This document shows, one piece after another, positions 2,070 through 59,554 of a DNA stretch of 64,000 nucleotides. The stretch is from Candidatus Doudnabacteria bacterium (GTDB lineage Bacteria; Patescibacteriota; Doudnabacteria; UBA920). The notes beneath the pieces are model-generated. The model searched no databases. It saw only the letters and a program-made list of their open reading frames with translations, and was not told the DNA's origin. The stretch is taken from contig CAWINB010000001.1 in assembly GCA_963837465.1 (NCBI GenBank), forward strand, positions 75,915 to 139,914, written 5' to 3'. The first letter of the stretch is position 1; each line of letters starts with the position of its first letter. Position numbers and translations under genes: made by a program.

Positions 2070-3095
2070 ATGGTAAATTTCTGGCAACAATTCAACAAAC
2101 CCTTTTTCTGCCTCGCTCCCATGGAAGAGGTTACGGATTTCGCGTTTCGGGAAATGTTCGCGCGTTACAGCGGCAGGCAAGTTGCGAGTAGCGGGTCGCG
2201 GGTATCCGGCGGTAACAATTTTGTCATGTTTACCGAGTTTGTTAATGTAGATGGTTTGTTGCACCCGGAGGGTTTTAAAAAATTATCCATAGATTTAAAA
2301 TATTCGGAAATCCAAAGGCCCGTTGTGGCGCAAATTTGGGGAAGGGATCCGGAAAAATTTTACCGCGCCGCGCAACTCATCAGGGAGTTAAAATTTGACG
2401 GCATAGACATTAATATGGGCTGTCCGCAATCCAGGGAAATCCAGATCGGCGCCTGCGCGGCTTTAATCCGCGAGCCGAAATCAGCCCAGGAGATAATCAG
2501 CGCCACAAAAAAAGGCGCGGGTAATTTGCCCGTATCCGTTAAAACAAGAATCGGTTACGGTAAAACCGACGAAATGGGGGATTGGCTGAAAGCGCTTTTG
2601 GAAATGGATTTGGCCGCCATAACTTTACACTGCCGCACCAAGCAGGAAATGTCCAAAGTTCCGGCGCATTGGGACAAGATTACGGAAGCGGTTGTGATTA
2701 GGGATAAGGAGTTAGGCGTTGGGGCTAAGGGCGGCGGCACTTTGATTATCGGTAACGGCGATATTAAAAGCAGGGAAGATGGTTTGCAAAAAGCCCGGGA
2801 AACCGGAGCCGATGGTGTTATGGTTGGCCGTAGCGCTTTTGGCAATCCCTGGTTTTTCCAGGGCGGTATCATTCAGCCCAATCCCATAGAGCGCTTGCGG
2901 GTAATGCTGGAACACGCCGAACTGTTTGACCAAACTTTAGGCTCCGTAAAATCATTTTTTATTATGCGCAAGCACTTTAAGGCCTATTGCGGCGGCTTTG
3001 GCGGCGCGTCGGAACTGCGCGCCAAGCTTATGGAGGCGAAAAATTTGGAAGACGCCACGCAGGCCGTAAGTATTTTTTTGAAAAAATTTCCCTGA
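2070..3095 (+). CDS. dus: tRNA-dihydrouridine synthase
   Basis: CLAPMEEVTDFAFR is the Dus N-terminal motif, plus a TIM-barrel FMN-binding region. A possible 13-aa GC-rich insertion lies at nt ~2168-2215. Confidence 0.85.
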   Translation: MVNFWQQFNKPFFCLAPMEEVTDFAFREMFARYSGRQVASSGSRVSGGNNFVMFTEFVNVDGLLHPEGFKKLSIDLKYSEIQRPVVAQIWGRDPEKFYRAAQLIRELKFDGIDINMGCPQSREIQIGACAALIREPKSAQEIISATKKGAGNLPVSVKTRIGYGKTDEMGDWLKALLEMDLAAITLHCRTKQEMSKVPAHWDKITEAVVIRDKELGVGAKGGGTLIIGNGDIKSREDGLQKARETGADGVMVGRSAFGNPWFFQGGIIQPNPIERLRVMLEHAELFDQTLGSVKSFFIMRKHFKAYCGGFGGASELRAKLMEAKNLEDATQAVSIFLKKFP

Positions 3096-3108: not shown

Positions 3109-3143
3109 AGCTTAGTGTCAAGGGTCACCCTTGACACTAAGCT
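3109..3143. terminator. palindromic hairpin (16-bp stem, 3-nt loop) between convergent dus and CYTH genes; repeated element
   Basis: AGCTTAGTGTCAAGGG-TCA-CCCTTGACACTAAGCT. The 25-bp core AGTGTCAAGGGTCACCCTTGACACT recurs identically at 22359-22383. Confidence 0.6.
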
Positions 3144-3712
3144 ATCCTGTCAAAAGTGAAGTATCTTAAATGACCGGCCGGAATATTGTAATCTTTTTCC
3201 AGGACGTAACCCGCGCTTTCCGTTCTTCTTCGCGCCCAGTCAAGGTCAAGTTTTTCAGCCGTAAGTTTTAAGCTGGCTTCGTCCGGGCCCTCAATTTCCA
3301 AATAAGTCGGCGCTTTGGGCCAGGTGTCCAAATCCAGCGTTACTTCTCCCAGCTTAAACGAATGGCGCTTTTTTTCCTGGAAACGGTAGGCCACCAAGCC
3401 CAGTTCCTCCAGAAAACTTCTAGCTTTTTCCATATCGTCAACTTTAAATTCAATTTCCTTGACGCCGATTTTTTGACCGACTACGCGGTATTTATAGGTT
3501 AAAAAAATGCCGGCGCGGTTTTTCCTCAAACGCGCCAGCTGGAAAACGGTGTTCCTGTTTTCCAGCCACTCCAAATTTTTATCGTAAAAAATTATTTCCG
3601 CGAGAAAGTCCTCGCCCAAATCTTCCGCGCCCAGCTTTTTTAAATCCGAGCGGATTTTGTCTTGGTCAACTTCCAGGAACTTAACCTCGATTTCCCTATT
3701 TGAATCGTTCAT
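3137..3712 (-). CDS. CYTH-domain protein (triphosphate tunnel metalloenzyme / class IV adenylate cyclase-like)
   Basis: N-terminal EIEVKFLEVD is the ExExK signature of CYTH. 191 aa. Confidence 0.7.
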   Translation of the reverse strand: MNDSNREIEVKFLEVDQDKIRSDLKKLGAEDLGEDFLAEIIFYDKNLEWLENRNTVFQLARLRKNRAGIFLTYKYRVVGQKIGVKEIEFKVDDMEKARSFLEELGLVAYRFQEKKRHSFKLGEVTLDLDTWPKAPTYLEIEGPDEASLKLTAEKLDLDWARRRTESAGYVLEKDYNIPAGHLRYFTFDRIA

Positions 3713-3814: not shown

Positions 3815-3919
3815 TACTGACCTTTAACACATAGCTTAATAATCAGATGTGTCGCAAACTCTATAAAATCAAGCAGTTTTGATTAACATCTCTATTAACT
3901 TAAGTGTTAAAGGTCAGTA
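3815..3919. mobile_element. 105-bp MITE-like repeat, copy 1
   Basis: Terminal inverted repeats TACTGACCTTTAACAC / GTGTTAAAGGTCAGTA. Near-identical full copy at 34198-34302 and 3' half at 59455-59497. All are intergenic. Confidence 0.6.
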
Positions 3920-3954
3920 GATTCTGCGGTTTTACGTGGTGTCCGCAAGCTCTG

Positions 3955-6030
3955 TTAAGGTAAAGCCACTTTCAGCAGATTACCATCATTGAGCACAAAT
4001 ATGGTCTTGCCGGGCTCGTTAACCGCAAAATCCATAAGTTTGGTAAACTGTGATGACTTAAGCGTTTCCTGCAGGTTACCGGTTTTATCCATAACCAAAA
4101 TTTGGTTATTGGCCACATCCATCAAATAGATATTGTTGAAGCTTTTTTGGGTATAGATTTTATCGCCCGGCGCAAGGGGGGTTGAAAGGCCGGAGTCGGC
4201 AAAGGCGGCAGGCCCGCCGGCAAAGAATTTATTGACGCCGTTTTGGCCGAGGGCAAAAATACTGCCGTCAACAGCCAGGCTTTGGGCCTGCGCCAGGCTT
4301 GGACCCTGCGTCGAGACCACCGGTTTTGAAATAGTATTTTTTGTAACCAGGAAACTCAGAACCTCGGCCGCGCTTTTATCTATTAAATAGACGCGGTTGT
4401 TGAGGCCATAAAAACTTATGCCGCCGAAACTGCTTTTGGCAGGCACGTTTTGGGTAAAAGCCGGACCCAGGGTACCGGATAAAAAATTCCAAACGTACAA
4501 ACTCGTTCCATCGTAAACCACGGCCGAAGAGTCGTTTACATCCACACTGGCCACAATGCCCACAGGACAGCTAAGCGCGCCGTCGGCTATTTGACCGCTT
4601 TGCAGGTCGTAACTGATAATATCACCAACAGCCTGGGTGCCCAAAAATTGCGGCAAACTTATCAGGCTCAATCCTTTGCCCAAATTACCCAAATCGCTTA
4701 CCTTGACCTGCGTGACTTTTTGTATCTGCTGCAGCAGCGTTTGATATTGGGAAGAAATTTGGCTGTAAAGGATTTTGTCGGCGGACGGTACGTTTTTGGC
4801 CGGCGGTAAATCCGTTCCGGCCTGCTTTATAAGACCGGCGGCCTGGCTGTCGTCTTTATACAGGATTAAAGATTGGGCGTTGGCCAAAAGGCTTTTGGCG
4901 TTTTGCAACTGGCCGCTGATTTGGTCTTGTACCGCACGGCTTTTCTTTAAGTGCGCGGCTATTATAATATTGGCGGCCACGGCCAGCAGTAAAATAAGCG
5001 CCGAAGCCAGAAAGAATTTTTTTTGCCGGCTGAGGGAGCGGAAATTTTGCGGATTAACCGAAGTCTTAACGGCCTTGGCCGAAGTTTTGGCTTTCTGCCA
5101 GATTTTATTGCCGCCTGCCATTAGGCTCCGGGTATTTTGTGGTAAATTTTTCAGCCTTTGGCCCAAAGCCGCCCCGCCTCCATTAATGGATTTTGGCAAT
5201 CCGGCGGAGGGTTGGCTGGACGGCAAAAAAGCTTTGACATAATCCAGAGTCCGCGTTATAACGGTTTTGTTGGTTAAACCAGCCGGGACTGAGTAACCCG
5301 CCGTTGCCGTTTCCTGCTCCCGGGCTTGTCCTTCCGGAACCTGCAAATTCAGCAAAACCCCAAAAGACGCCTCGCCACCCGAGTTTTGTTTCAACAGTCC
5401 GATAATTGTTTTTACTCCGAGCAAAAAATCGCCGCTCATAATATCTTTAAGCCTGTCCAGCGATAAGTAATTCAGCAGTTGGGTGGTAGAGAGGATAATA
5501 AGGTCGTTTAGCCGGATTTTGCCGATGGCGTAGTTTTGGAAAGTTTTTAACGGATGAGTTTGGTCCGATGAGCAGGAGATATCGGTAAACTCGCCGTTGC
5601 GAAATAAGAAAGCCGCCACTTTTCCGGTGCTGGCCATGCTTAACTCAAGTCCCTGCCTGACGCCCAGCACGCAGTTAAGCTTATCTATCCACTGTGTTTG
5701 ACCCAGGGAGGCCAGCTTGCCCAGTTCCTCGTTTATTTGGCCAATGGCCGTTTCAAAAGTGTTTTCCGAAAGCGGGGCAGTTTTATAAGCCCTTCTAAAG
5801 GCCGAACCTATAGCCAGACAAATCCTTTGGCAATCTTCCGTTGCCGCCGGCGTTAGTATGGGCAGTTCGGCCACGGCGTACAGTTCCGCGGAGCCGGCGG
5901 TTTCCGCCATCAAATAAACATAACTACCAGGCGCCTTATTGTTTCCAAGTTGGATTTTTGCTATCTGTGACTCTAATTCTTCCATGAAAATACGATTGGA
6001 TAAAATGAATTCCCGGTTATTATACAACAA
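3955..6030 (-). CDS. large membrane-anchored hypothetical protein (weak PP2C/SpoIIE-like N-terminal region, central TM, C-terminal beta-propeller-like repeats)
   Basis: 691-aa ORF with one hydrophobic span (FFLASALILLLAVAANIIIAA) and repetitive C-terminal segments. Domain calls are weak. Confidence 0.55.
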   Translation of the reverse strand: MLYNNREFILSNRIFMEELESQIAKIQLGNNKAPGSYVYLMAETAGSAELYAVAELPILTPAATEDCQRICLAIGSAFRRAYKTAPLSENTFETAIGQINEELGKLASLGQTQWIDKLNCVLGVRQGLELSMASTGKVAAFLFRNGEFTDISCSSDQTHPLKTFQNYAIGKIRLNDLIILSTTQLLNYLSLDRLKDIMSGDFLLGVKTIIGLLKQNSGGEASFGVLLNLQVPEGQAREQETATAGYSVPAGLTNKTVITRTLDYVKAFLPSSQPSAGLPKSINGGGAALGQRLKNLPQNTRSLMAGGNKIWQKAKTSAKAVKTSVNPQNFRSLSRQKKFFLASALILLLAVAANIIIAAHLKKSRAVQDQISGQLQNAKSLLANAQSLILYKDDSQAAGLIKQAGTDLPPAKNVPSADKILYSQISSQYQTLLQQIQKVTQVKVSDLGNLGKGLSLISLPQFLGTQAVGDIISYDLQSGQIADGALSCPVGIVASVDVNDSSAVVYDGTSLYVWNFLSGTLGPAFTQNVPAKSSFGGISFYGLNNRVYLIDKSAAEVLSFLVTKNTISKPVVSTQGPSLAQAQSLAVDGSIFALGQNGVNKFFAGGPAAFADSGLSTPLAPGDKIYTQKSFNNIYLMDVANNQILVMDKTGNLQETLKSSQFTKLMDFAVNEPGKTIFVLNDGNLLKVALP

Positions 6031-14063: not shown

Positions 14064-15014
14064 CTAAAAATCCGTTTGACTTTTAAAATCCTTAAGTCTT
14101 TGCTTAATATCTATGACTCTGATTTTTTGTAGTCGTCTGGTGCCAAGTCTTTCACAACAAAAACTGGCCAGTGCAGAGCCGTAAGCGCAGGCTTTTTTTA
14201 GGTTCTTCCACGAAGTATTATTTGTCTTTGCCAAATACCCCATAAACCCTCCCGCGAAGCTGTCGCCGGCGCCGGTGGGGTCGATGACTTTTTCCAGGGG
14301 GTAGCCGGGGAGATGAAAAATTTGGGATTTTTGGAACATCATCAGGCCGTATTCGCCGCGTTTGATGATGAGTGTAGGGGCTGGCTTTAGCCGCCCGTCA
14401 TCATTGGAAAGCGGGCGGGCAAGCCCGGCCCCTACAGTTCGCATAATCTTTTTGGCGGCTTTAATTAAATTATGTTCTCCCGATAGCTGTCGTGCTTCGG
14501 AATCGTTGATAATAAAAACATTTACCAGTTTTAAAACTTTGGCCAGCTGTTTGGGCGCGCTTGATATCCAAAAATTCATTGTATCCAGCCCCACAAATTT
14601 TGGTTTATTTATCTGGCTTAAAACTTCCAGCTGCAAAGAGGGGTGGATGTTGCCCGAAAAAATGTAGCCGGCTTTGGTGTGGCGGGGGAGTAGTCGGGGT
14701 TTAAAATTTTCAAAAACATTTAAGCGGGTAAATAAAGTTTCGCGGCTGTTTAAATCAAAACTGTACTCGCCGCCCCAGGCAAAGGTTTTGCCGCTTTCGG
14801 TTTGCAGGCCCGAAATATCCGCGGCGCCTCCAAGAATTTTTTTATCGGCCGCCGCAAAATCATTCCCCACTACCGCTACAAGCATCGGCTTTATAAAAAA
14901 CCTTGCGGCCAAAGAAAAATAAGTGGCGCTGCCGCCCAGCGCTCTCTTAACTTTGCCAAAAGGGGTTTTAATGCTGTCGTAGGCTACGGACCCGACGATT
15001 AAAAGGTTATTCAT
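14064..15014 (-). CDS. PfkB-family carbohydrate kinase (ribokinase-like)
   Basis: N-terminal GSVAYD and C-terminal DPTGAGDSFAGGF PfkB signature. Contains the in-frame palindromic insert at 14374-14435. Confidence 0.8.
   Translation of the reverse strand: MNNLLIVGSVAYDSIKTPFGKVKRALGGSATYFSLAARFFIKPMLVAVVGNDFAAADKKILGGAADISGLQTESGKTFAWGGEYSFDLNSRETLFTRLNVFENFKPRLLPRHTKAGYIFSGNIHPSLQLEVLSQINKPKFVGLDTMNFWISSAPKQLAKVLKLVNVFIINDSEARQLSGEHNLIKAAKKIMRTVGAGLARPLSNDDGRLKPAPTLIIKRGEYGLMMFQKSQIFHLPGYPLEKVIDPTGAGDSFAGGFMGYLAKTNNTSWKNLKKACAYGSALASFCCERLGTRRLQKIRVIDIKQRLKDFKSQTDF
14374..14435. repeat. GC-rich palindromic element (RPE-like) inserted in-frame in the PfkB kinase gene
   Basis: 24-bp arms GTAGGGGCTGGCTTTAGCCGCCCG / CGGGCGGGCAAGCCCGGCCCCTAC around a 14-bp centre. 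Same left arm and similar right arm at 38180-38263. Confidence 0.7.
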
Positions 15015-22349: not shown

Positions 22350-22358
22350 TCGGCAGTT

Positions 22359-22383
22359 AGTGTCAAGGGTCACCCTTGACACT
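22359..22383. terminator. second copy of the 25-bp palindromic terminator element
   Basis: AGTGTCAAGGGTCACCCTTGACACT, identical to 3114-3138. Confidence 0.55.
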
Positions 22384-34197: not shown

Positions 34198-34302
34198 TAC
34201 TGACCTTTAACACATAGCTTAATAATCAGATGTGTCGCAAACTCTGTAAAATCAAGCATTTTTGATTAACATCTCTATTAACTTAAGTGTTAAAGGTCAG
34301 TA
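34198..34302. mobile_element. 105-bp MITE-like repeat, copy 2
   Basis: Near-identical to copy 1 (2-3 substitutions). 17-bp terminal inverted repeats CTACTGACCTTTAACAC. Confidence 0.6.
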
Positions 34303-34477
34303 GGATGGGGAAATGCGTACTACGAGCGCAAATTCTAATCTGAAGTGCAATCGCCGGCCCAGCCAATTAAAACTGTTACCAAGACTTTAGCGGGTAGCTC
34401 ATAAATGGGTTACTTATTAAGGGGTGGTTCAATTCGGCCATGTTTCTTATTTTTACTATCTTTGGTATAATAAACTC

Positions 34478-36682: not shown

Positions 36683-36697
36683 GAAGGAATTGCACGG

Positions 36698-37135
36698 ATG
36701 AACACGGATAGGAAACAGATTAACACGGAGTTGCTGCACGAAGATTTGACGTACCAAATCCGGTCGGCAATTTTTGAGATAGCTAATAAGTATGGGAAGG
36801 GTTTTAAAGAGAGTATTTACCAGGCGGCGTTAGCCGAAGAGTTCGCCAAACGCAGTATTCCTTTTGAGTCACAAAAACGCATCACAGTTTATTCTTTAGA
36901 TACTGGCAAACCCCTGGGTTATTATATCCCGGATTTTATAGCTTACGAAAAAATTATTATAGAGATAAAAGCCACAGATTTTACGACAGACCAAAATATT
37001 GAGCAAGAGCTGTCTTATCTGCGAATAAGTACTTACGAGATTGGGATTTTAGTTAATTTTAATGCCCGCAAACTGGACATCCAAAGACTCATATTTACCA
37101 ACGACCGCAAGCTATTTTTGAAAAAAATACTCTGA
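36698..37135 (+). CDS. GxxExxY-family protein (PD-(D/E)xK nuclease-like)
   Basis: GFKESIY is the GxxExxY motif. 145 aa. Bounded by 18-bp terminal inverted repeats. Confidence 0.7.
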   Translation: MNTDRKQINTELLHEDLTYQIRSAIFEIANKYGKGFKESIYQAALAEEFAKRSIPFESQKRITVYSLDTGKPLGYYIPDFIAYEKIIIEIKATDFTTDQNIEQELSYLRISTYEIGILVNFNARKLDIQRLIFTNDRKLFLKKIL

Positions 37136-37154
37136 TCCGTGTTAATCTGTTTCT
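36712..37154. mobile_element. GxxExxY nuclease gene cassette bounded by perfect 18-bp terminal inverted repeats
   Basis: GAAACAGATTAACACGGA at 36712-36729 and its reverse complement TCCGTGTTAATCTGTTTC at 37137-37154. Shorter AACACGGAT / ATCTGT units flank both sides. Confidence 0.55.
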
Positions 37155-37193
37155 TATCTGTGTTTATCTGTTACAAATACATTATATTGTCCT

Positions 37194-37642: not shown

Positions 37643-40600
37643 ATGGAAAAACTGCTGGACAATCTCAATAAAGAACAGCTTTCCGCGGTTACCCATAGGG
37701 ACGGGCCGCTTTTGATAGTGGCGGGAGCCGGGACGGGAAAGACCACGGTTATTACCCGGCGGATAGCTTATTTAATAGAACAGGGATTGGCCAAGCCCGA
37801 TGAAATTTTGGCGCTAACGTTTACGGACAAAGCCGCCGGGGAAATGCAGGACAGGCTGGCGCAGTTGTTGCCTCTGGGCTATTACGATATGTGGATTTCC
37901 ACGTTCCACAGCTTTTGCCAGCGAATTTTGGAACAGCACGGGCTGGATATCGGCCTGCCCGGGGACTTTAAACTGCTCAATAAGGCGGGCGCCTGGATAT
38001 TAATTTACAATAATTTGCAGAAATTTAATTTAAATTACTACAAACCGCTGGGCAACCCCAATAAATTTATTTCCGCTTTGCTTAAGCATTTTAGCCGGTG
38101 CAAAGACGAGCTGATAACTCCGGAGGCCTATTTGGAGTACGCGCGGGAACTGAAGCTGTCTACAGATGTAGCCGAAGGTGTAGGGGCTGGCTTTAGCCGC
38201 CCGCCTCCTGATGACGGGCCGCGCGGATCTTCTTTACGGGGCGGGCAGGCAAGCCCAGCCCCCGCGGATCCCAATATGGATCCAGCCGAAACACTTCGAA
38301 TAGAAGAAATTGCCAACGCTTTCCATATTTACGAAAAACTCCTGCTGGACGGCAACTTTTTGGACTTTGCCAACCTGATTAATTACACAATAAAACTTTT
38401 TGAAAAACGCCCGCAAATTTTAAAACACTACCGGGAAAAGTTTAAATATATTATGGTGGATGAGTTTCAGGATACCAATTTGGCGCAGTACGAGCTGATT
38501 AAAATGGTTGCCGGCGGCGGATTACGCAGCGTTCCCGCTTACGGGGCGTCCCCGGATGCCGATAAATCCGCGCGCCACACCCCATCTGCCAACCTCGTAG
38601 TCGTGGGCGACGACGACCAATCCATTTACAAATTCCGCGGCGCGTCCGTTTCCAATATTTTAAAATTCCAGGAGGACTACAGCCCACTCAAACAAACCAG
38701 TTTGGTGGAAAATTACAGAAGCGGCCAGGAAATTTTGGATTTGGCTTATGACTTTATCCAGTCCAACAATCCCGAGAGGCTGGAAGTTAAGTTAAAAATC
38801 AATAAAAGACTTAAAAGCCAAACGAAGGAAAAATCTGTTATTGAGGTTTTGGAAGGCAAGGATTTGGTTGAGGAACTTAATTTTGTCGCCAAAAAAATTA
38901 CGGAACTGAAATTGCAAAGCCAAAAAAGCACCTGGAACGATTTTGCCGTTTTAATAAGAAGCAATTCCGCGGCCCGCGAACTGTTGCCGGTCCTGGAAAA
39001 GCACGGCATCCCGCACACGTTTGTGGCCAATACAGGACTCTACAACAAGCCTTTTATTTCATTGCTGATTGCTTATTTGGAATGTCTGGACAATTTTCAC
39101 GACTCTTTTGCCTTGTATCGCGTGCTTTCGTTTGGCGAATTTAATATGCCGCCGGAGGACTTGGCGCAGGTTCTGGCCAATTCCGAAAGAAAAACCTTGT
39201 CTTTATACGAAATGCTCGGCAAAGCCGAAACTTTGCCGCAAATAGGGGGGAAGTCGCAAAAAATAATTCAAAATATTATTTTGCTTTTAAACCGGCACGC
39301 CGCGGTGGCCAGAGAAAAAGCGGCTAATGAAGTCTTTATCCAGATTATCCGTGATTTAAAACTCGACCAATGGCTGGAGGAGGATAATTCGCAAAACGCG
39401 GAAAACCGCGAGCTTTTGGAGCAGTTTTATAAAAAAATTGAAACTTTTGTGGCGGAGAATGTCGATAAAAGCCTGCATAATTTTTCGCATCTGCTCAATT
39501 TGGAAATAGAAGCCGGTGACGAAGGGCAGATTAAATTTGACCCGAACTTAGGCCCCCAAAGCCTTAAAATCCTTACCGTGCATTCGGCCAAGGGCTTGGA
39601 ATTTGAATATGTTTTTATACCCAACATGGTTGACCAGCGCTTTCCCACGCGGGCGCGCGGCGAACAAATAGAAATTCCGGCGCCGCTTATAAAAGATATC
39701 CTGCCGGAAGGGGATTTCCATCTCCAGGAGGAGAGGCGGCTGTTTTACGTGGCCGTAACCCGGGCAAAATCCCATTTATACTTGTCCTGGAGCAAGGATT
39801 ACGGCGGCGCCAAAACCAAAAAGCCTTCGCTGTTTTTGCAGGAGACCAAACTGGTGCCCGGGGAACATACTTCCCGGGCCACGGGAAAAGTATTTTTTCG
39901 GGGCAGCTCGAAAAATCAGGTGGTTTACAAATTTTTACCCGCGACTTTTTCTTTTTCCGCTCTCAAAGCTTTTGAAAACTGCCCGTTCCAATACAAATAC
40001 CAGTACTACCTAAAATTGCCCTGCCCCGGCAGCGCTTATTTCAGCTTTGGCCAGACAATGCATAAAACCTTTGAGTTGTATTTGAAAGATTACGCGGCCA
40101 GAAAAAGCCAGAGCCAGCGGGATTTATTCGCCAAGACATCCGCCCAAGCCGAGCCGGGCGATTTTAAATTTTTGGAAAAACTTTACCAGGACAGCTGGGT
40201 GGATGAGTGGTATAAAGATAAAAAGCAAAAAGAAGATTACCGCGAAAGAGGCCGCCGGCTTTTAAAGATTTTTTACGAAATTTCGCGAAAAAACCCGCCG
40301 AGCCCCAAATACCTGGAAAAGTCTTTTTACCTGCCTCTGGGGAAATATAAATTTACCGGCAAAATAGACAGAGCGGATTTTGTAAACGGCGCCCTGGAAA
40401 TCATTGATTACAAAACCAGCGAAAAAATACCGAAGCAAAATGACAAGGACGGACTGGACCAGTTGTATGTTTATCAGTGGGCGGCCCAGGAATTTTTGGG
40501 GGAAAAAGTTTCTGCCCTAAAGTACTGGTATTTGAACGAGGATAAGTTTCTGCCGGAAAAAATCGCGTCGGACCCGGAAATCCGGGAATTAAAGCAAAGG

Positions 40601-40735
40601 CTTTTAAAAAGCATTGAAAATATCGCGGAAACCATCAAATACGACCGTTTCGCCCAAGCGCACGAAAATACCAGGGAACACCAATGCCAATTTGAACATT
40701 GGGAAATCCATGGTTTGAATTTAAAAATAAACTAA
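37643..40735 (+). CDS. UvrD/PcrA-family SF1 helicase with C-terminal RecB-like PD-(D/E)xK nuclease domain (AddA-like)
   Basis: Walker A GAGTGKTT, DEFQDT, VVGDDDQSIY and the helicase C-domain. C-terminal CPFQYKYQYY and IIDYKTS nuclease motifs. In-frame GC-rich palindromic insert at 38180-38263. Confidence 0.85.
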   Translation: MEKLLDNLNKEQLSAVTHRDGPLLIVAGAGTGKTTVITRRIAYLIEQGLAKPDEILALTFTDKAAGEMQDRLAQLLPLGYYDMWISTFHSFCQRILEQHGLDIGLPGDFKLLNKAGAWILIYNNLQKFNLNYYKPLGNPNKFISALLKHFSRCKDELITPEAYLEYARELKLSTDVAEGVGAGFSRPPPDDGPRGSSLRGGQASPAPADPNMDPAETLRIEEIANAFHIYEKLLLDGNFLDFANLINYTIKLFEKRPQILKHYREKFKYIMVDEFQDTNLAQYELIKMVAGGGLRSVPAYGASPDADKSARHTPSANLVVVGDDDQSIYKFRGASVSNILKFQEDYSPLKQTSLVENYRSGQEILDLAYDFIQSNNPERLEVKLKINKRLKSQTKEKSVIEVLEGKDLVEELNFVAKKITELKLQSQKSTWNDFAVLIRSNSAARELLPVLEKHGIPHTFVANTGLYNKPFISLLIAYLECLDNFHDSFALYRVLSFGEFNMPPEDLAQVLANSERKTLSLYEMLGKAETLPQIGGKSQKIIQNIILLLNRHAAVAREKAANEVFIQIIRDLKLDQWLEEDNSQNAENRELLEQFYKKIETFVAENVDKSLHNFSHLLNLEIEAGDEGQIKFDPNLGPQSLKILTVHSAKGLEFEYVFIPNMVDQRFPTRARGEQIEIPAPLIKDILPEGDFHLQEERRLFYVAVTRAKSHLYLSWSKDYGGAKTKKPSLFLQETKLVPGEHTSRATGKVFFRGSSKNQVVYKFLPATFSFSALKAFENCPFQYKYQYYLKLPCPGSAYFSFGQTMHKTFELYLKDYAARKSQSQRDLFAKTSAQAEPGDFKFLEKLYQDSWVDEWYKDKKQKEDYRERGRRLLKIFYEISRKNPPSPKYLEKSFYLPLGKYKFTGKIDRADFVNGALEIIDYKTSEKIPKQNDKDGLDQLYVYQWAAQEFLGEKVSALKYWYLNEDKFLPEKIASDPEIRELKQRLLKSIENIAETIKYDRFAQAHENTREHQCQFEHWEIHGLNLKIN
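38180..38263. repeat. GC-rich palindromic element (RPE-like) inserted in-frame in the helicase gene
   Basis: Left arm GTAGGGGCTGGCTTTAGCCGCCCG is identical to 14374-14397. Right arm is GGCGGGCAGGCAAGCCCAGCCCCC. Encodes VGAGFSRP...ASPAPA between helicase motifs. Confidence 0.7.
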
Positions 40736-46171: not shown

Positions 46172-48244
46172 ATGGCAAAGAAAGAAGAGATAAAAAAAGC
46201 ATCCGGCGAGTATACCTCGGAGAATATTACTGTTCTTGAGGGTCTTGAGCCGGTGCGCAAGCGCCCGGGGATGTATATCGGGTCTACTTCGGTAACAGGG
46301 CTGCACCACCTTGTTTGGGAAATTGTGGACAACGCGGTTGACGAGGCCATGGCCGGCCACGCGGACAAAGTTTGGGTGCTAATGCAAAAAGACGGCGGCG
46401 TCAGCGTTTTGGACAACGGCCGCGGCATTCCTGTGGACGTGCACAAGACCACCAAGAAATCGGGTCTGGAAACAGTTTTAACCGTGCTTCACGCCGGCGG
46501 AAAATTCGGAGGCGAAGCCAGCGGCTACAAAGTTTCAGGCGGACTGCACGGCGTGGGCGCGTCCGTGGTTAACGCGCTGTCCACCAAGCTGATTGCCCAG
46601 GTTTACAAAGACGGCAAAATTTACGAGCAAAGCTTTAAAATCGGCAAACCGCAGAGCCAGATAAAAATTATCGGCAAACTCGGCAAAGACGAGCCCATCC
46701 AGCACGGCACCAGAATTACTTTTTACCCGGACGCCAGTATTTTTGAAACCATCAAATTCAATTTTAAAACTGTCCTGGAGCATTTGCGCAGCCAGGCGTA
46801 TTTAACCAAGGGCCTGCATTTTGTTATTACGGATGAAGCGGAAAATTTAACTTACCAGTATTATTTTGAGGGCGGGATTTTAAGCTATCTTAAACAGTTT
46901 AACCGCAACAAAAAAACCAAATCCCAGGCCGTTTATATTGCCAGGCAGGTGGAAGATGTGGCGATTGAAGTTGCCATCCAGTACACGGACGACTATGAAG
47001 AGCGCATTCTTTCTTACGCCAACAATGTTTACACTCCGGAGGGCGGTATGCACGTTACGGGTTTCAGGACGGCGCTGACCCGGGTAATCAACGGCTACGC
47101 CACAAAAAATAATTACGTCAAAGAAAGCGAAAAGCTGACCGGGGAAGACATGCGAGAGGGACTCAGCGCCATTATTTCGGTTAAGCTGCCGAATCCGCAG
47201 TTTGAAGGGCAGACCAAGGCCAAGTTGGGAAATCCCGAAGTCAGGACCGCCACGGAATCGGTGGTCGGAGAGGCTTTGGAAATTTATTTGGAGGAGCATC
47301 CTCAGGAAGCGGGGAAAATTATAGAAAAAGTTATTCTGGCCGCCAAAGCCAGAATCGCGGCCCGCGCGGCCAGGGACAGTGTTATCCGCAAAGGCGTTTT
47401 GGAGGGTCTGGCATTACCCGGCAAGCTGGCCGATTGCTCGGAGTCCGACCCAACCAAATGCGAAATGTACATTGTAGAGGGCGAAAGCGCCGGCGGTACG
47501 GCCAAGCAGGGCCGCGACAGGCGTTTTCAGGCTATTCTCTCCATGCGCGGCAAAATTTTAAACGTTGAACGGGCGCGGCTGGACAGGATGCTCGGCAACC
47601 AGGAAATAAAAAATATTATTATTGCTTTGGGCGCGGGCATTGGCGATATGTTTGATGTCGCGAAGCTTAGATATCATCGCATAGTTATTATGACAGATGC
47701 CGATGTAGACGGTTCACACATTCGTACGCTTTTACTGACCCTTTTTTACCGCTACTTTCCGGACATCATAAAAAATGGCTACGTTTACATTGCCCAGCCG
47801 CCGCTGTTTAAAGTCCAGGTCGGCCGCGATTCCAAATACGCTTTTTCCGACGAAGAGCGCGACAAAGTTTTAAAGGAGTTGGTGGCGGGAGCTAAAGAAA
47901 AAAAATCAGCTTCTAAATCATCCAAAGGCGGAAAATCCGCTGTAGCGCAGGCCCCCGGCCTGCCCGCCGAGGAAGAAGAGCAATCCACCGTGGAAGAAAC
48001 TACCGGCGGCAGTATGGATGGTTTTAAATACGGCATCCAGCGCTACAAAGGTCTTGGTGAAATGAACGCGGAACAGCTTTGGGAAACCACAATGGACCCA
48101 GCTAACAGGGTAATGCTCCAGGTTACCATTAAAGACGCGGAAAAAGTATCGGAAATTTTTGAAGTGTTAATGGGCGACGAAGTCGCCCCCAGAAAACGCT
48201 TTATAACCACACACGCCAAGGCGGTAAAAAATTTGGATATATAG
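46172..48244 (+). CDS. gyrB: DNA gyrase subunit B
   Basis: GHKL ATPase and TOPRIM motifs: LEGLEPVRKRPGMYIGST, YIVEGESAGG, PLKGKILNVE-like. Confidence 0.95.
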   Translation: MAKKEEIKKASGEYTSENITVLEGLEPVRKRPGMYIGSTSVTGLHHLVWEIVDNAVDEAMAGHADKVWVLMQKDGGVSVLDNGRGIPVDVHKTTKKSGLETVLTVLHAGGKFGGEASGYKVSGGLHGVGASVVNALSTKLIAQVYKDGKIYEQSFKIGKPQSQIKIIGKLGKDEPIQHGTRITFYPDASIFETIKFNFKTVLEHLRSQAYLTKGLHFVITDEAENLTYQYYFEGGILSYLKQFNRNKKTKSQAVYIARQVEDVAIEVAIQYTDDYEERILSYANNVYTPEGGMHVTGFRTALTRVINGYATKNNYVKESEKLTGEDMREGLSAIISVKLPNPQFEGQTKAKLGNPEVRTATESVVGEALEIYLEEHPQEAGKIIEKVILAAKARIAARAARDSVIRKGVLEGLALPGKLADCSESDPTKCEMYIVEGESAGGTAKQGRDRRFQAILSMRGKILNVERARLDRMLGNQEIKNIIIALGAGIGDMFDVAKLRYHRIVIMTDADVDGSHIRTLLLTLFYRYFPDIIKNGYVYIAQPPLFKVQVGRDSKYAFSDEERDKVLKELVAGAKEKKSASKSSKGGKSAVAQAPGLPAEEEEQSTVEETTGGSMDGFKYGIQRYKGLGEMNAEQLWETTMDPANRVMLQVTIKDAEKVSEIFEVLMGDEVAPRKRFITTHAKAVKNLDI

Positions 48245-59435: not shown

Positions 59436-59554
59436 CACGGATCTACGAATACTATTTTGATTAACATCTCTATTAACTTAAGTGTTAAAGGTCAGTAAGA
59501 TCAGTAGGTATCTGTAGATCCGTTTTCAATCCGTATACCCGCGTTAAATTTATT
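59431..59554 (+). promoter_or_regulatory. conserved structured intergenic module (copy B) containing a partial MITE copy (59455-59497)
   Basis: AATTAACACGGATCTACGAATAC ... [MITE 3' half] ... GTATCTGTAGATCCGTTTTCAATCCGTATACCCGCGTTAAATTTATTATGTAT. Flanking inverted repeat CGGATCTAC / GTAGATCCG. Confidence 0.5.

Follow-up and report, generated by a model that had tools for sequence, protein, structure and literature searches.

The closest described relatives of the element considered here are GTAG-tagged repetitive extragenic palindromic (REP) sequences and the REP-associated tyrosine transposases (RAYTs) that accompany them. According to Di Nocera et al. (2013, PMC3733652), GTAG REPs have a stem of 5–13 bp and a loop of 2–20 nt (Table 1), join head-to-head in homodimers and heterodimers, flank RAYT genes in so-called REPtrons, and form intragenic doublets that encode 20–30 amino acids (a.a.). 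A head-to-head REP doublet is termed a REPIN (PMC3733652; PMC3337134). The former survey places intragenic doublets in UvrD/Rep, RecBCD, UvrA/B, and tRNA synthetase genes, most numerously in Opitutus terrae, and lists GTAG repeats for Proteobacteria, Cyanobacteria, Chloroflexi, and the Planctomycetes-Verrucomicrobia-Chlamydiae (PVC) superphylum. Literature searches found no paper in the searched library that joins RAYTs or REPINs to the CPR (candidate phyla radiation, Patescibacteria). A 62-bp, GC-rich palindrome within a pfkB gene of a Candidatus Doudnabacteria bacterium is very probably a REPIN, from a REP family of Doudnabacteria-like Patescibacteria that has a RAYT (an HUH/Y1 transposase) as its cognate gene. 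The gene lies in a window of 64,000 nt (GenBank assembly GCA_963837465.1, contig CAWINB010000001.1, positions 75,915–139,914), which is the whole stretch of DNA that was analyzed.

The palindrome, GTAGGGGCTGGCTTTAGCCGCCCG-TCATCATTGGAAAG-CGGGCGGGCAAGCCCGGCCCCTAC, occupies positions 14374–14435 of the window and consists of two 24-nt arms, which are imperfect inverted copies of each other (19 of 24 positions match after reverse-complementing), around a 14-nt centre. It lies wholly and in-frame within the minus-strand open reading frame (ORF) at 14064–15014, as an original prediction made from the sequence alone had described. Both arms begin with GTAG, each on its own strand, and because the inner box of the second unit differs from that of the first, the doublet is a heterodimer. 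The features of the locus are listed below, with scores from R1, a covariance model of the REP unit:

14064..15014, minus strand: PfkB-family sugar/nucleoside kinase, 316 a.a. (Pfam PF00294, ortholog alignment, AlphaFold2)
14374..14435, no strand assigned: complete REPIN, head-to-head (GTAG outward) heterodimer (sequence, arm rarity, DNA fold, independent assembly)
14374..14397, plus strand: REP unit A, GTAG + GGGC-T-GGCT-TT-AGCC-GCCC-G, a bulged 8-bp hairpin (R1 40.3 bits, E = 1.2e-6; covariation)
14398..14411, no strand assigned: 14-nt spacer TCATCATTGGAAAG (family spacers are 3–14 nt, occasionally >40 nt, with unrelated sequences)
14412..14435, minus strand: REP unit B, GTAGGGGC-C-GGGC-TT-GCCC-GCCCG (R1 40.9 bits, E = 8.6e-7)

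On the minus (host) strand the element reads as VGAGLARPLSNDDGRLKPAPT, which amounts to 21 residues (approximately 194–214) where about 18 had been predicted, with a net gain of approximately 17 a.a. over insert-free orthologs. The plus strand reads as VGAGFSRPSSLESGRASPAPT, so that the predicted similarity of the peptides from either strand holds; an example of an insert peptide is TVGAGLARPLSNDDGR. Folded as single-stranded DNA (ssDNA), the element reaches -24.3 kcal/mol (z = -5.2), which none of 200 shuffles equaled. An identical gene with an identical element is present in an independent Logan assembly of run ERR10755945 (L001), which excludes an assembly chimera. A search of the whole window against Rfam at gathering thresholds returned two tRNAs only, the element matching no known RNA family, and viral contigs scanned with the arm pattern gave no match.

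Judged from an alignment of 38 PfkB orthologs, the segment is a real insertion, since it is missing in most of them (e.g., KIMGLMG-KNPTLIIKRGE), in agreement with what had been proposed. The PfkB homologs all belong to Patescibacteria, several of them named Doudnabacteria; one (P0007) has a longer homolog of the insert segment, and in others short inserts of unrelated sequence occupy this loop as well as a second one. The closest relative (P0097/L043), with 80% a.a. identity and approximately 88% nucleotide identity in the flanks, aligns up to both edges of the element. At the element site it has a different small hairpin, CCCTCCCC-TTATAA-AGGGAGGGG (peptide TTSPRPSPYKGRG), which gives no hit with the REP model. 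In the AlphaFold2 model of PfkB (mean predicted local distance difference test score, pLDDT, 92), the insert is a coil with pLDDT 60–74, falling below 50 at residues 199–202, in a loop between helix 183–191 and strand 214–218. An intein, an intron, and a programmed frameshift were each ruled out as the nature of the insert by its size, the lack of matching signatures, and the continuity of the host frame through the element. The two PfkB loops are also hot spots in general, with at least three or four unrelated short inserts among the orthologs, including TTSPRPSPxKG..., SPSPSPSHQGRG..., SLRGGQRPTKQSQKKIASLPSVARND, and PSPSLSAEASAKADGRG...; the TTSPRPSP-type insert is found in the closest relative (L043 3580–3640) where the window gene has the REPIN.

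Doublets of the family consist of a unit with the plan GTAGGGGC-N-[box]-TT-[box']-GCCCG, a spacer, and a second such unit in inverted orientation. The GTAG tetranucleotide is invariant in 30 of 30 distinct 24-nt units, where it stands unpaired at the 5' end, and it is followed by a hairpin with an 8-bp stem, a 1-nt bulge, and a TT loop (structure ....((((.((((..)))))))).). Across these 30 units, 94.6% of cells pair in this structure, compared with 81% in shuffles and approximately 40% with slid partners. Double changes occupy 39 cells vs. 14.3 in shuffles, a count that 0 of 500 shuffles reached. The covarying inner boxes are self-complementary (GGCC/GGCC, GGCT/AGCC, GCGC/GCGC, GGGC/GCCC, AAGC/GCTT, GACT/AGTC, and GCCT/AGGC), and the two boxes within one doublet usually differ. 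ViennaRNA prefers one long hairpin for the doublet, which was rejected as the relevant structure, as just 4–9 of 10 box positions pair between the arms. In every doublet whose two arms were compared, the inner boxes are different, each of them self-complementary, and approximately 95% of cells in the unit hairpin pair within the arm. Because pairing is poor between arms and nearly complete within them, the per-unit hairpin is the conserved feature. The covarying bulged hairpin, together with the unpaired and invariant GTAG, therefore makes the arm a GTAG-type REP and the element a REPIN.

One genome per GTDB species was scanned with the degenerate arm GTAGGGGCYGGSYTTRSCCGCCCG, which gave 35 loci. 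Almost all are in metagenome-assembled genomes (MAGs) of Doudnabacteria/Patescibacteria, with 4–7 exact-arm copies per MAG. The palindrome thus belongs to a dispersed repeat family in related genomes, in line with the original prediction; given these further copies and the lack of the segment in most orthologs, the conditions set for refuting that prediction do not apply. Solo arms also turned up a few times in Acidobacteria and Ignavibacteria, where they could be chance matches or belong to a different family. Most copies are head-to-head doublets of 52–62 bp, and 32 head-to-head doublets are present across the fetched loci.

In related genomes the family is associated with RAYT-like genes. 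When E. coli RayT was used as a phmmer query against all ORFs of the window and loci, it matched two ORFs only, each of 186 a.a. and both in a locus (L026) of a Doudnabacteria MAG with seven exact-arm copies. The best NCBIfam family of both is NF047646 (REP-associated tyrosine transposase, REP_Tyr_transpos; E = 2e-16 and 6e-16), and Pfam Y1_Tnp (cutoff 23) scores 28.5 bits for one and 19.9 bits for the other. With E. coli RayT, 23% of residues are identical over 90 a.a., and the HUH motif and catalytic Tyr can be aligned, HFH and EYIQNNP of the RAYT-like protein standing opposite HMH and YIYINP. The ORF that scores 28.5 bits on Y1_Tnp (and E = 6e-16 on NF047646), read as 165 a.a., starts 12 nt after a single family unit, GTAGGGGCCGGCTTTAGCCGCCCG. 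A homolog search with the RAYT-like protein returned 344 proteins, many of them named "REP element-mobilizing transposase RayT" by the Joint Genome Institute (JGI).

Further loci (L038, with its near-duplicate assembly L039, and L040, L041, and L042) were fetched via the RAYT protein alone, and in each of them units or doublets of the GTAGGGGC family flank the RAYT gene on both sides. In two of these protein-fetched loci the GTAG of a REP supplies the TAG stop codon of the RAYT gene. Of the 18 R1 hits in L038, L040, L041, and L042, 16 fall within approximately 330 nt of the RAYT gene (26 kb searched), and one downstream doublet in L041 is nearly identical to the pfkB element of the window, spacer included. 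The REPtron arrangement is therefore found in five distinct loci (L026, L038, L040, L041, and L042). The order secA-RAYT-gatCAB (gatC-gatA-gatB) occurs in L040, L041, and L042, the RAYT gene of L038 follows glyA, and that of L026 probably also lies between secA and gatCAB. The recurrence of secA-RAYT-gatCAB in several Doudnabacteria assemblies agrees with a published description of RAYTs as vertically inherited in the manner of housekeeping genes (PMC5581495).

The second RAYT paralog of L026 (approximately 5230–5860, minus strand of the locus) is about 40% identical to the first and is accompanied by a different REP type, GTAGCGGCACGCCTTGGCGTGCCG, with a single unit upstream of the gene and a head-to-head doublet downstream, the GTAG of which gives the stop codon. 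One unit of the GTAGCGGCACGCCTTGGCGTGCCG type also lies in-frame inside the second RAYT gene itself (PHDGMPGHAATG).

The location of the doublets is mostly intragenic. In the scan-derived set, which comprises the window and the Patescibacteria scan loci, 16 of 26 doublets (approximately 62%), including both copies of the window, lie deep inside ORFs of 224–1054 a.a. The host proteins, which were recognized from sequence (PfkB being Pfam-confirmed), are ValRS, IleRS, LysRS, TopA, RecR, UvrC, two UvrD-type helicases, LepA, RF2, transketolase, and PfkB. One more doublet of this kind occurs within GatB of the RAYT-fetched locus L041. All 17 intragenic copies start in phase 0 and read VGA[GAS][LF]xRP. 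Phase 2 holds the TAG of GTAG, and phase 1 peptides are rich in Cys and Trp, often with a stop. Of 34 strand options, 13 leave phase 1 free of stops, yet it is never used (p ~0.001, or ~0.004 with orthologous sites collapsed), so that the peptide encoded has a bearing on tolerance. Copies leave the element in any of the three frames (...PAPT, ...GQPLQ, and ...SPY). The non-genic copies sit in short spacers at gene ends and show no sign of split genes.

At orthologous sites the arms persist while their surroundings change. Across the RecR genes of three MAGs, 47 of the 48 arm positions do not vary, compared with 128 of 219 positions of the coding DNA that flanks them (binomial 2e-10); the arms have no synonymous differences, whereas spacer codons vary freely and the 10-nt spacer is unrelated among the three. 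The TopA orthologs of two MAGs share one identical arm, and the other arm has a compensatory change in the inner box. An ortholog of the window's helicase (L012) has a family member at the same site in swapped order, the left arm type of the window sitting on the right. For mobilization itself the only signs are indirect, namely the turnover of different inserts at the pfkB loop and the swap of arm types at the helicase site. The RecR, TopA, and helicase patterns indicate that the arms are either under constraint at the DNA level or renewed independently of the host protein. Selection, gene conversion, and RAYT-mediated replacement, which these data do not tell apart, may each account for the constancy of the arms.

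The second copy in the window was recognized through the left arm of the pfkB element, which recurs exactly, as a 26-nt stretch, at 38178–38203 in the plus-strand helicase ORF 37643–40735; 0.00 such matches are expected by chance (100 dinucleotide-preserving shuffles). An in-frame helicase copy with an identical left arm had been predicted, and the match is exact; the copy is 86 bp long and decayed, extending to 38265:

37643..40735, plus strand: UvrD/PcrA-type helicase with C-terminal PD-(D/E)XK nuclease (AddA-like), 1030 a.a. (Pfam UvrD-helicase, UvrD_C, PDDEXK_1; PDB PcrA E = 4e-58)
38180..38265, no strand assigned: decayed second copy (86 bp) within the helicase frame, VGAGFSRPPPDDGPRGSSLRGGQASPAPA (exact arm match; PcrA comparison; L012 ortholog)
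38180..38203, plus strand: intact REP unit, identical to unit A (R1 40.3 bits; exact match)
38242..38262, minus strand: degenerate REP unit (R1 24 bits, E = 0.0035, model positions 4–24 only)

In the degenerate unit the GTAG is mutated (plus-strand CTAC is now CCGC) and the stem contains an indel, which leaves 24 bits vs. approximately 40 for intact units, and the DNA fold of this copy is not significant (z = -1.0). Helicase residues 167–220 (about 55) stand opposite 6 residues in PcrA (1pjr/2pjr), from which the insert is absent. This copy would be an older insertion now in decay, which would fit the status of a relic. An unfiltered R1 search of the 64-kb window found exactly four units, i.e., these two doublets. 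A looser pattern, GTAGNGGC...GCCNCTAC with an 8–30-nt gap, had no match, but this gap is too short for the present doublets, so that the null is uninformative on other GTAG families in the window.

Further along the helicase, a second insert that keeps the frame, GGGLRSVPAYGASPDADKSARHTPSA, lies at 38512–38590 (residues ~291–316), between DEFQDTN and VGDDDQSIY, where PcrA has 4 residues; its DNA fold is not significant. Similar peptides (RSVPIYGRPKDADKSARY and RSVPIYRLSKNAEKLAHY) fill the second variable loop of PfkB P0032 and P0063. As far as peptide similarity goes, this suggests another dispersed element family. The GyrB ORF (46172–48244) also contains a GTAG and a short hairpin (GTAGCGCAGGCC-CCC-GGCCTGC) at 47927–47994, in a variable low-complexity segment before QRYKGLGEM, which may be what decay has left of a single REP of a different type, or a chance occurrence.

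The REPtron linkage, together with published work on E. coli cited in Di Nocera et al. (PMC3733652), suggests that mobilization of the family is catalyzed by the RAYT. By analogy with what is known of E. coli RayT and the REPINs of Pseudomonas, the enzyme would bind the REP hairpin in ssDNA, cut at the GTAG foot, and copy or move the doublet to new sites. CPR genomes, being small and gene-dense, offer little intergenic space, and many insertions would thus land in genes. Survivors would be those that keep the frame, contain no stop codons, and fall in tolerant surface loops. Since phase 2 carries a TAG stop on either strand and phase 1 is Cys/Trp-rich or stopped, survivors would read in phase 0 and give a Gly/Ala/Pro/Arg-rich VGAG(L/F)xRP... 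peptide, in both orientations because the element is palindromic. The pfkB copy would then be a fixed, presumably translated insertion of approximately 21 a.a. in a disordered surface loop, once mobilized by a RAYT; the source genome might still have an active RAYT.

Several observations weigh against this account. Only two copies are visible in the source genome, one of them decayed, both in the 64-kb window of a 699.5-kb source contig. Searches of the window with phmmer and tblastn turned up neither a RAYT nor its usual neighbors (secA, gatCAB), and none of the best 120 of the 344 RAYT homologs comes from a contig of 699,532 bp, the length of the source contig, so that the source genome may lack a cognate transposase. 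The RAYT may have been lost from it, and the copies may be relics. The RAYT-like proteins of L026 reach approximately 60 bits on NF047646, short of its curated cutoff (80). Neither transposition nor excision was seen, nor was any presence/absence polymorphism among near-identical strains. The elements measure 56, 58, 59, 60, and 62 bp, none of them a multiple of three, and upkeep of the frame would therefore need indels in the spacer or in the adjoining loop or flanks. Finally, classical REPs are predominantly extragenic, and most of the present doublets are intragenic. As intragenic REPs are on record as a minority in other phyla, the difference is one of degree and does not exclude the family from the class.

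If the palindrome were instead an exapted structural hairpin, its arms would be kept for host use rather than for transposition, and it may then serve, for instance, in mRNA stability, in making ribosomes pause for co-translational folding, as a binding site for a protein, or in replication/repair signaling. The far greater conservation of the RecR arms than of nearby coding DNA, the compensatory changes at an orthologous site, and the occupation of the same RecR, TopA, and helicase sites across MAGs all suit such a role, and REPs have been proposed to act as RNA elements (PMC3733652). Nevertheless, most PfkB orthologs do well without the element or carry unrelated hairpins in the loop, the helicase copy of the window is decaying, and the identity of the arms could equally come from RAYT-dependent turnover or gene conversion among copies, which leaves exaptation an unlikely explanation. 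A selected protein module, with VGAGxxRP...PAPT as a loop or linker and the palindrome incidental to it, could account for the exclusive use of phase 0 beyond what stop codons enforce. The same DNA, however, lies in intergenic spacers, beside RAYT genes, and in both orientations; three exit frames lead to three C-terminal peptides; the arms lack synonymous differences and the spacer codons vary freely; and the insert is predicted to be disordered. A selected protein module is accordingly very hard to credit.

Two alternatives are left. An orphan selfish palindrome, spreading in-frame after the manner of Rickettsia palindromic elements (RPEs) and with no transposase dedicated to it, would agree with the in-frame position, the tolerance of either strand, the housekeeping hosts in a reduced genome, and a window that encodes no transposase. 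RPE-1, however, is longer than the present doublet (~100–150 bp vs. 52–62 bp), and the family flanks RAYT-like genes in every distinct locus examined. The units are GTAG-tagged, whereas the RPE sequences of R. conorii end in CGTC, a class of repeats apparently without a dedicated transposase (PMC3733652), so that the likeness to RPEs holds for behavior only. An orphan element is thus quite improbable. The parallel drawn in the original prediction survives for the in-frame, either-strand behavior and fails for the family, given the GTAG tag, the covarying arm hairpins, and the flanking of RAYT genes. Misassembly or faulty binning, for instance a chimeric join made at a repeat, could be feared because the source is a MAG and repeats can mis-join contigs; the independent assembly, the frame that stays open across the element between conserved PfkB segments, and the family members at the same sites in orthologous genes of other MAGs leave it almost no credence.

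Compared with the REP/BIME-RayT system of E. coli (BIME, bacterial interspersed mosaic element) and the REPIN-RAYT system of Pseudomonas (Bertels and Rainey, 2011, PMC3116915; PMC3733652), the Doudnabacteria REPIN shares a 5' GTAG beside a short, GC-rich, bulged, and imperfect hairpin. It also shares the head-to-head doublets with variable spacers, the heterodimers, the dispersed families with several copies per related MAG, the family-specific REPs flanking a RAYT with a GTAG that sometimes gives its TAG stop, and the presence of two RAYT paralogs in one genome (L026), each with its own REP type. It differs in its CPR/Patescibacteria host, a phylum absent from the list in PMC3733652, in the very compact doublet (52–62 bp, spacer 3–14 nt), in low visible copy numbers, in the share of intragenic doublets, and in the divergence of its RAYT-like proteins. 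The intragenic REP dimers of Opitutus terrae, Xanthomonas, Thauera, and others (Di Nocera et al., 2013, Fig. 7, in the portion used) likewise lie wholly in ORFs, add 20–30 residues, favor hosts in replication, repair, and translation (UvrD/Rep, RecBCD, UvrA/B, and tRNA synthetases), and occupy orthologs at the same site (Xanthomonas recB there; RecR, TopA, and the helicase here). In contrast, intragenic copies are a minority there and the majority here, and neither the phase-0 rule nor the invariance of arms across species in coding DNA is reported in that portion. Intragenic, in-frame GTAG-REP doublets are thus already known in other phyla, although no such report was found for CPR/Patescibacteria.

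Two other kinds of small palindrome invite comparison. The RPEs, which Ogata and co-workers are said to have described in 2000, are also palindromic, in-frame in housekeeping genes of a reduced genome, and tolerated in surface regions of proteins, but they have a CGTC tag, no associated transposase, different sequence families, and a distribution restricted to Rickettsia. Miniature inverted-repeat transposable elements (MITEs) occur in coding regions as well, the Correia elements of Neisseria being an example. Like the present element, the MITEs in coding regions of Coxiella burnetii are small, non-autonomous palindromes able to add an in-frame peptide (PMC5896051). MITEs are, however, defined by the terminal inverted repeats of DDE-type insertion sequences (IS) and by target-site duplications, whereas the present element has GTAG hairpin ends of the HUH/Y1 (IS200/IS605-related) kind with no target-site duplication evident.

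The window contains other repeats. A 106-nt AT-rich palindromic repeat has two full copies (3815–3920 and 34198–34303, 98% identical), both intergenic, and a half copy (59455–59501); it has a DNA fold z of -5.8 and looks MITE-like and unrelated to the REP family. A near-perfect palindrome of 27–29 nt, TTAGTGTCAAGGGTCACCCTTGACACTAA, lies at 3112–3140, between the convergent ORFs 2070–3095 (plus strand) and 3137–3712 (minus strand), and again at 22357–22383, and might act as a terminator in both directions or as a site of protein binding. Inverted repeats of 36 nt (36694–36729 and 37136–37171, 89% complementary) bracket ORF 36698–37135, which encodes a 145-a.a. PD-(D/E)XK protein (PDDEXK_3). This unit lies between NYN-domain and PIN-domain genes, a short way upstream of the helicase, and could be a small mobile cassette.

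The REP/REPIN family of the Doudnabacteria repeats is new, and so is its phylum for such systems; the family stands out for its mostly intragenic location and extends REP/REPIN-RAYT systems to the CPR. It also shows the fate of REPs where non-coding DNA is scarce, in that most surviving copies are in-frame passengers in essential proteins. The family offers an explanation for a common annotation oddity, namely the short, low-confidence loops rich in Gly, Ala, Pro, and Arg that differ between close CPR orthologs. It further provides a DNA signature, in the form of model R1 and the plan GTAGGGGC-N-box-TT-box'-GCCCG, with which such loops can be masked or tracked. In addition, the invariance of the arms between species inside coding DNA offers a tractable test of whether REPINs are maintained by the transposase or by the host. 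A broader proposal can be made tentatively, although it is doubtful at present: the REPIN-RAYT system may persist mainly inside the coding sequences of essential CPR genes, where selection or RAYT-driven renewal in place would keep the arms constant across species while the spacer and host diverge and arm type and orientation switch at a fixed site. If so, coding DNA would be the habitat of a vertically inherited population of mobile elements, and the phase-0 peptide would be its price of admission.

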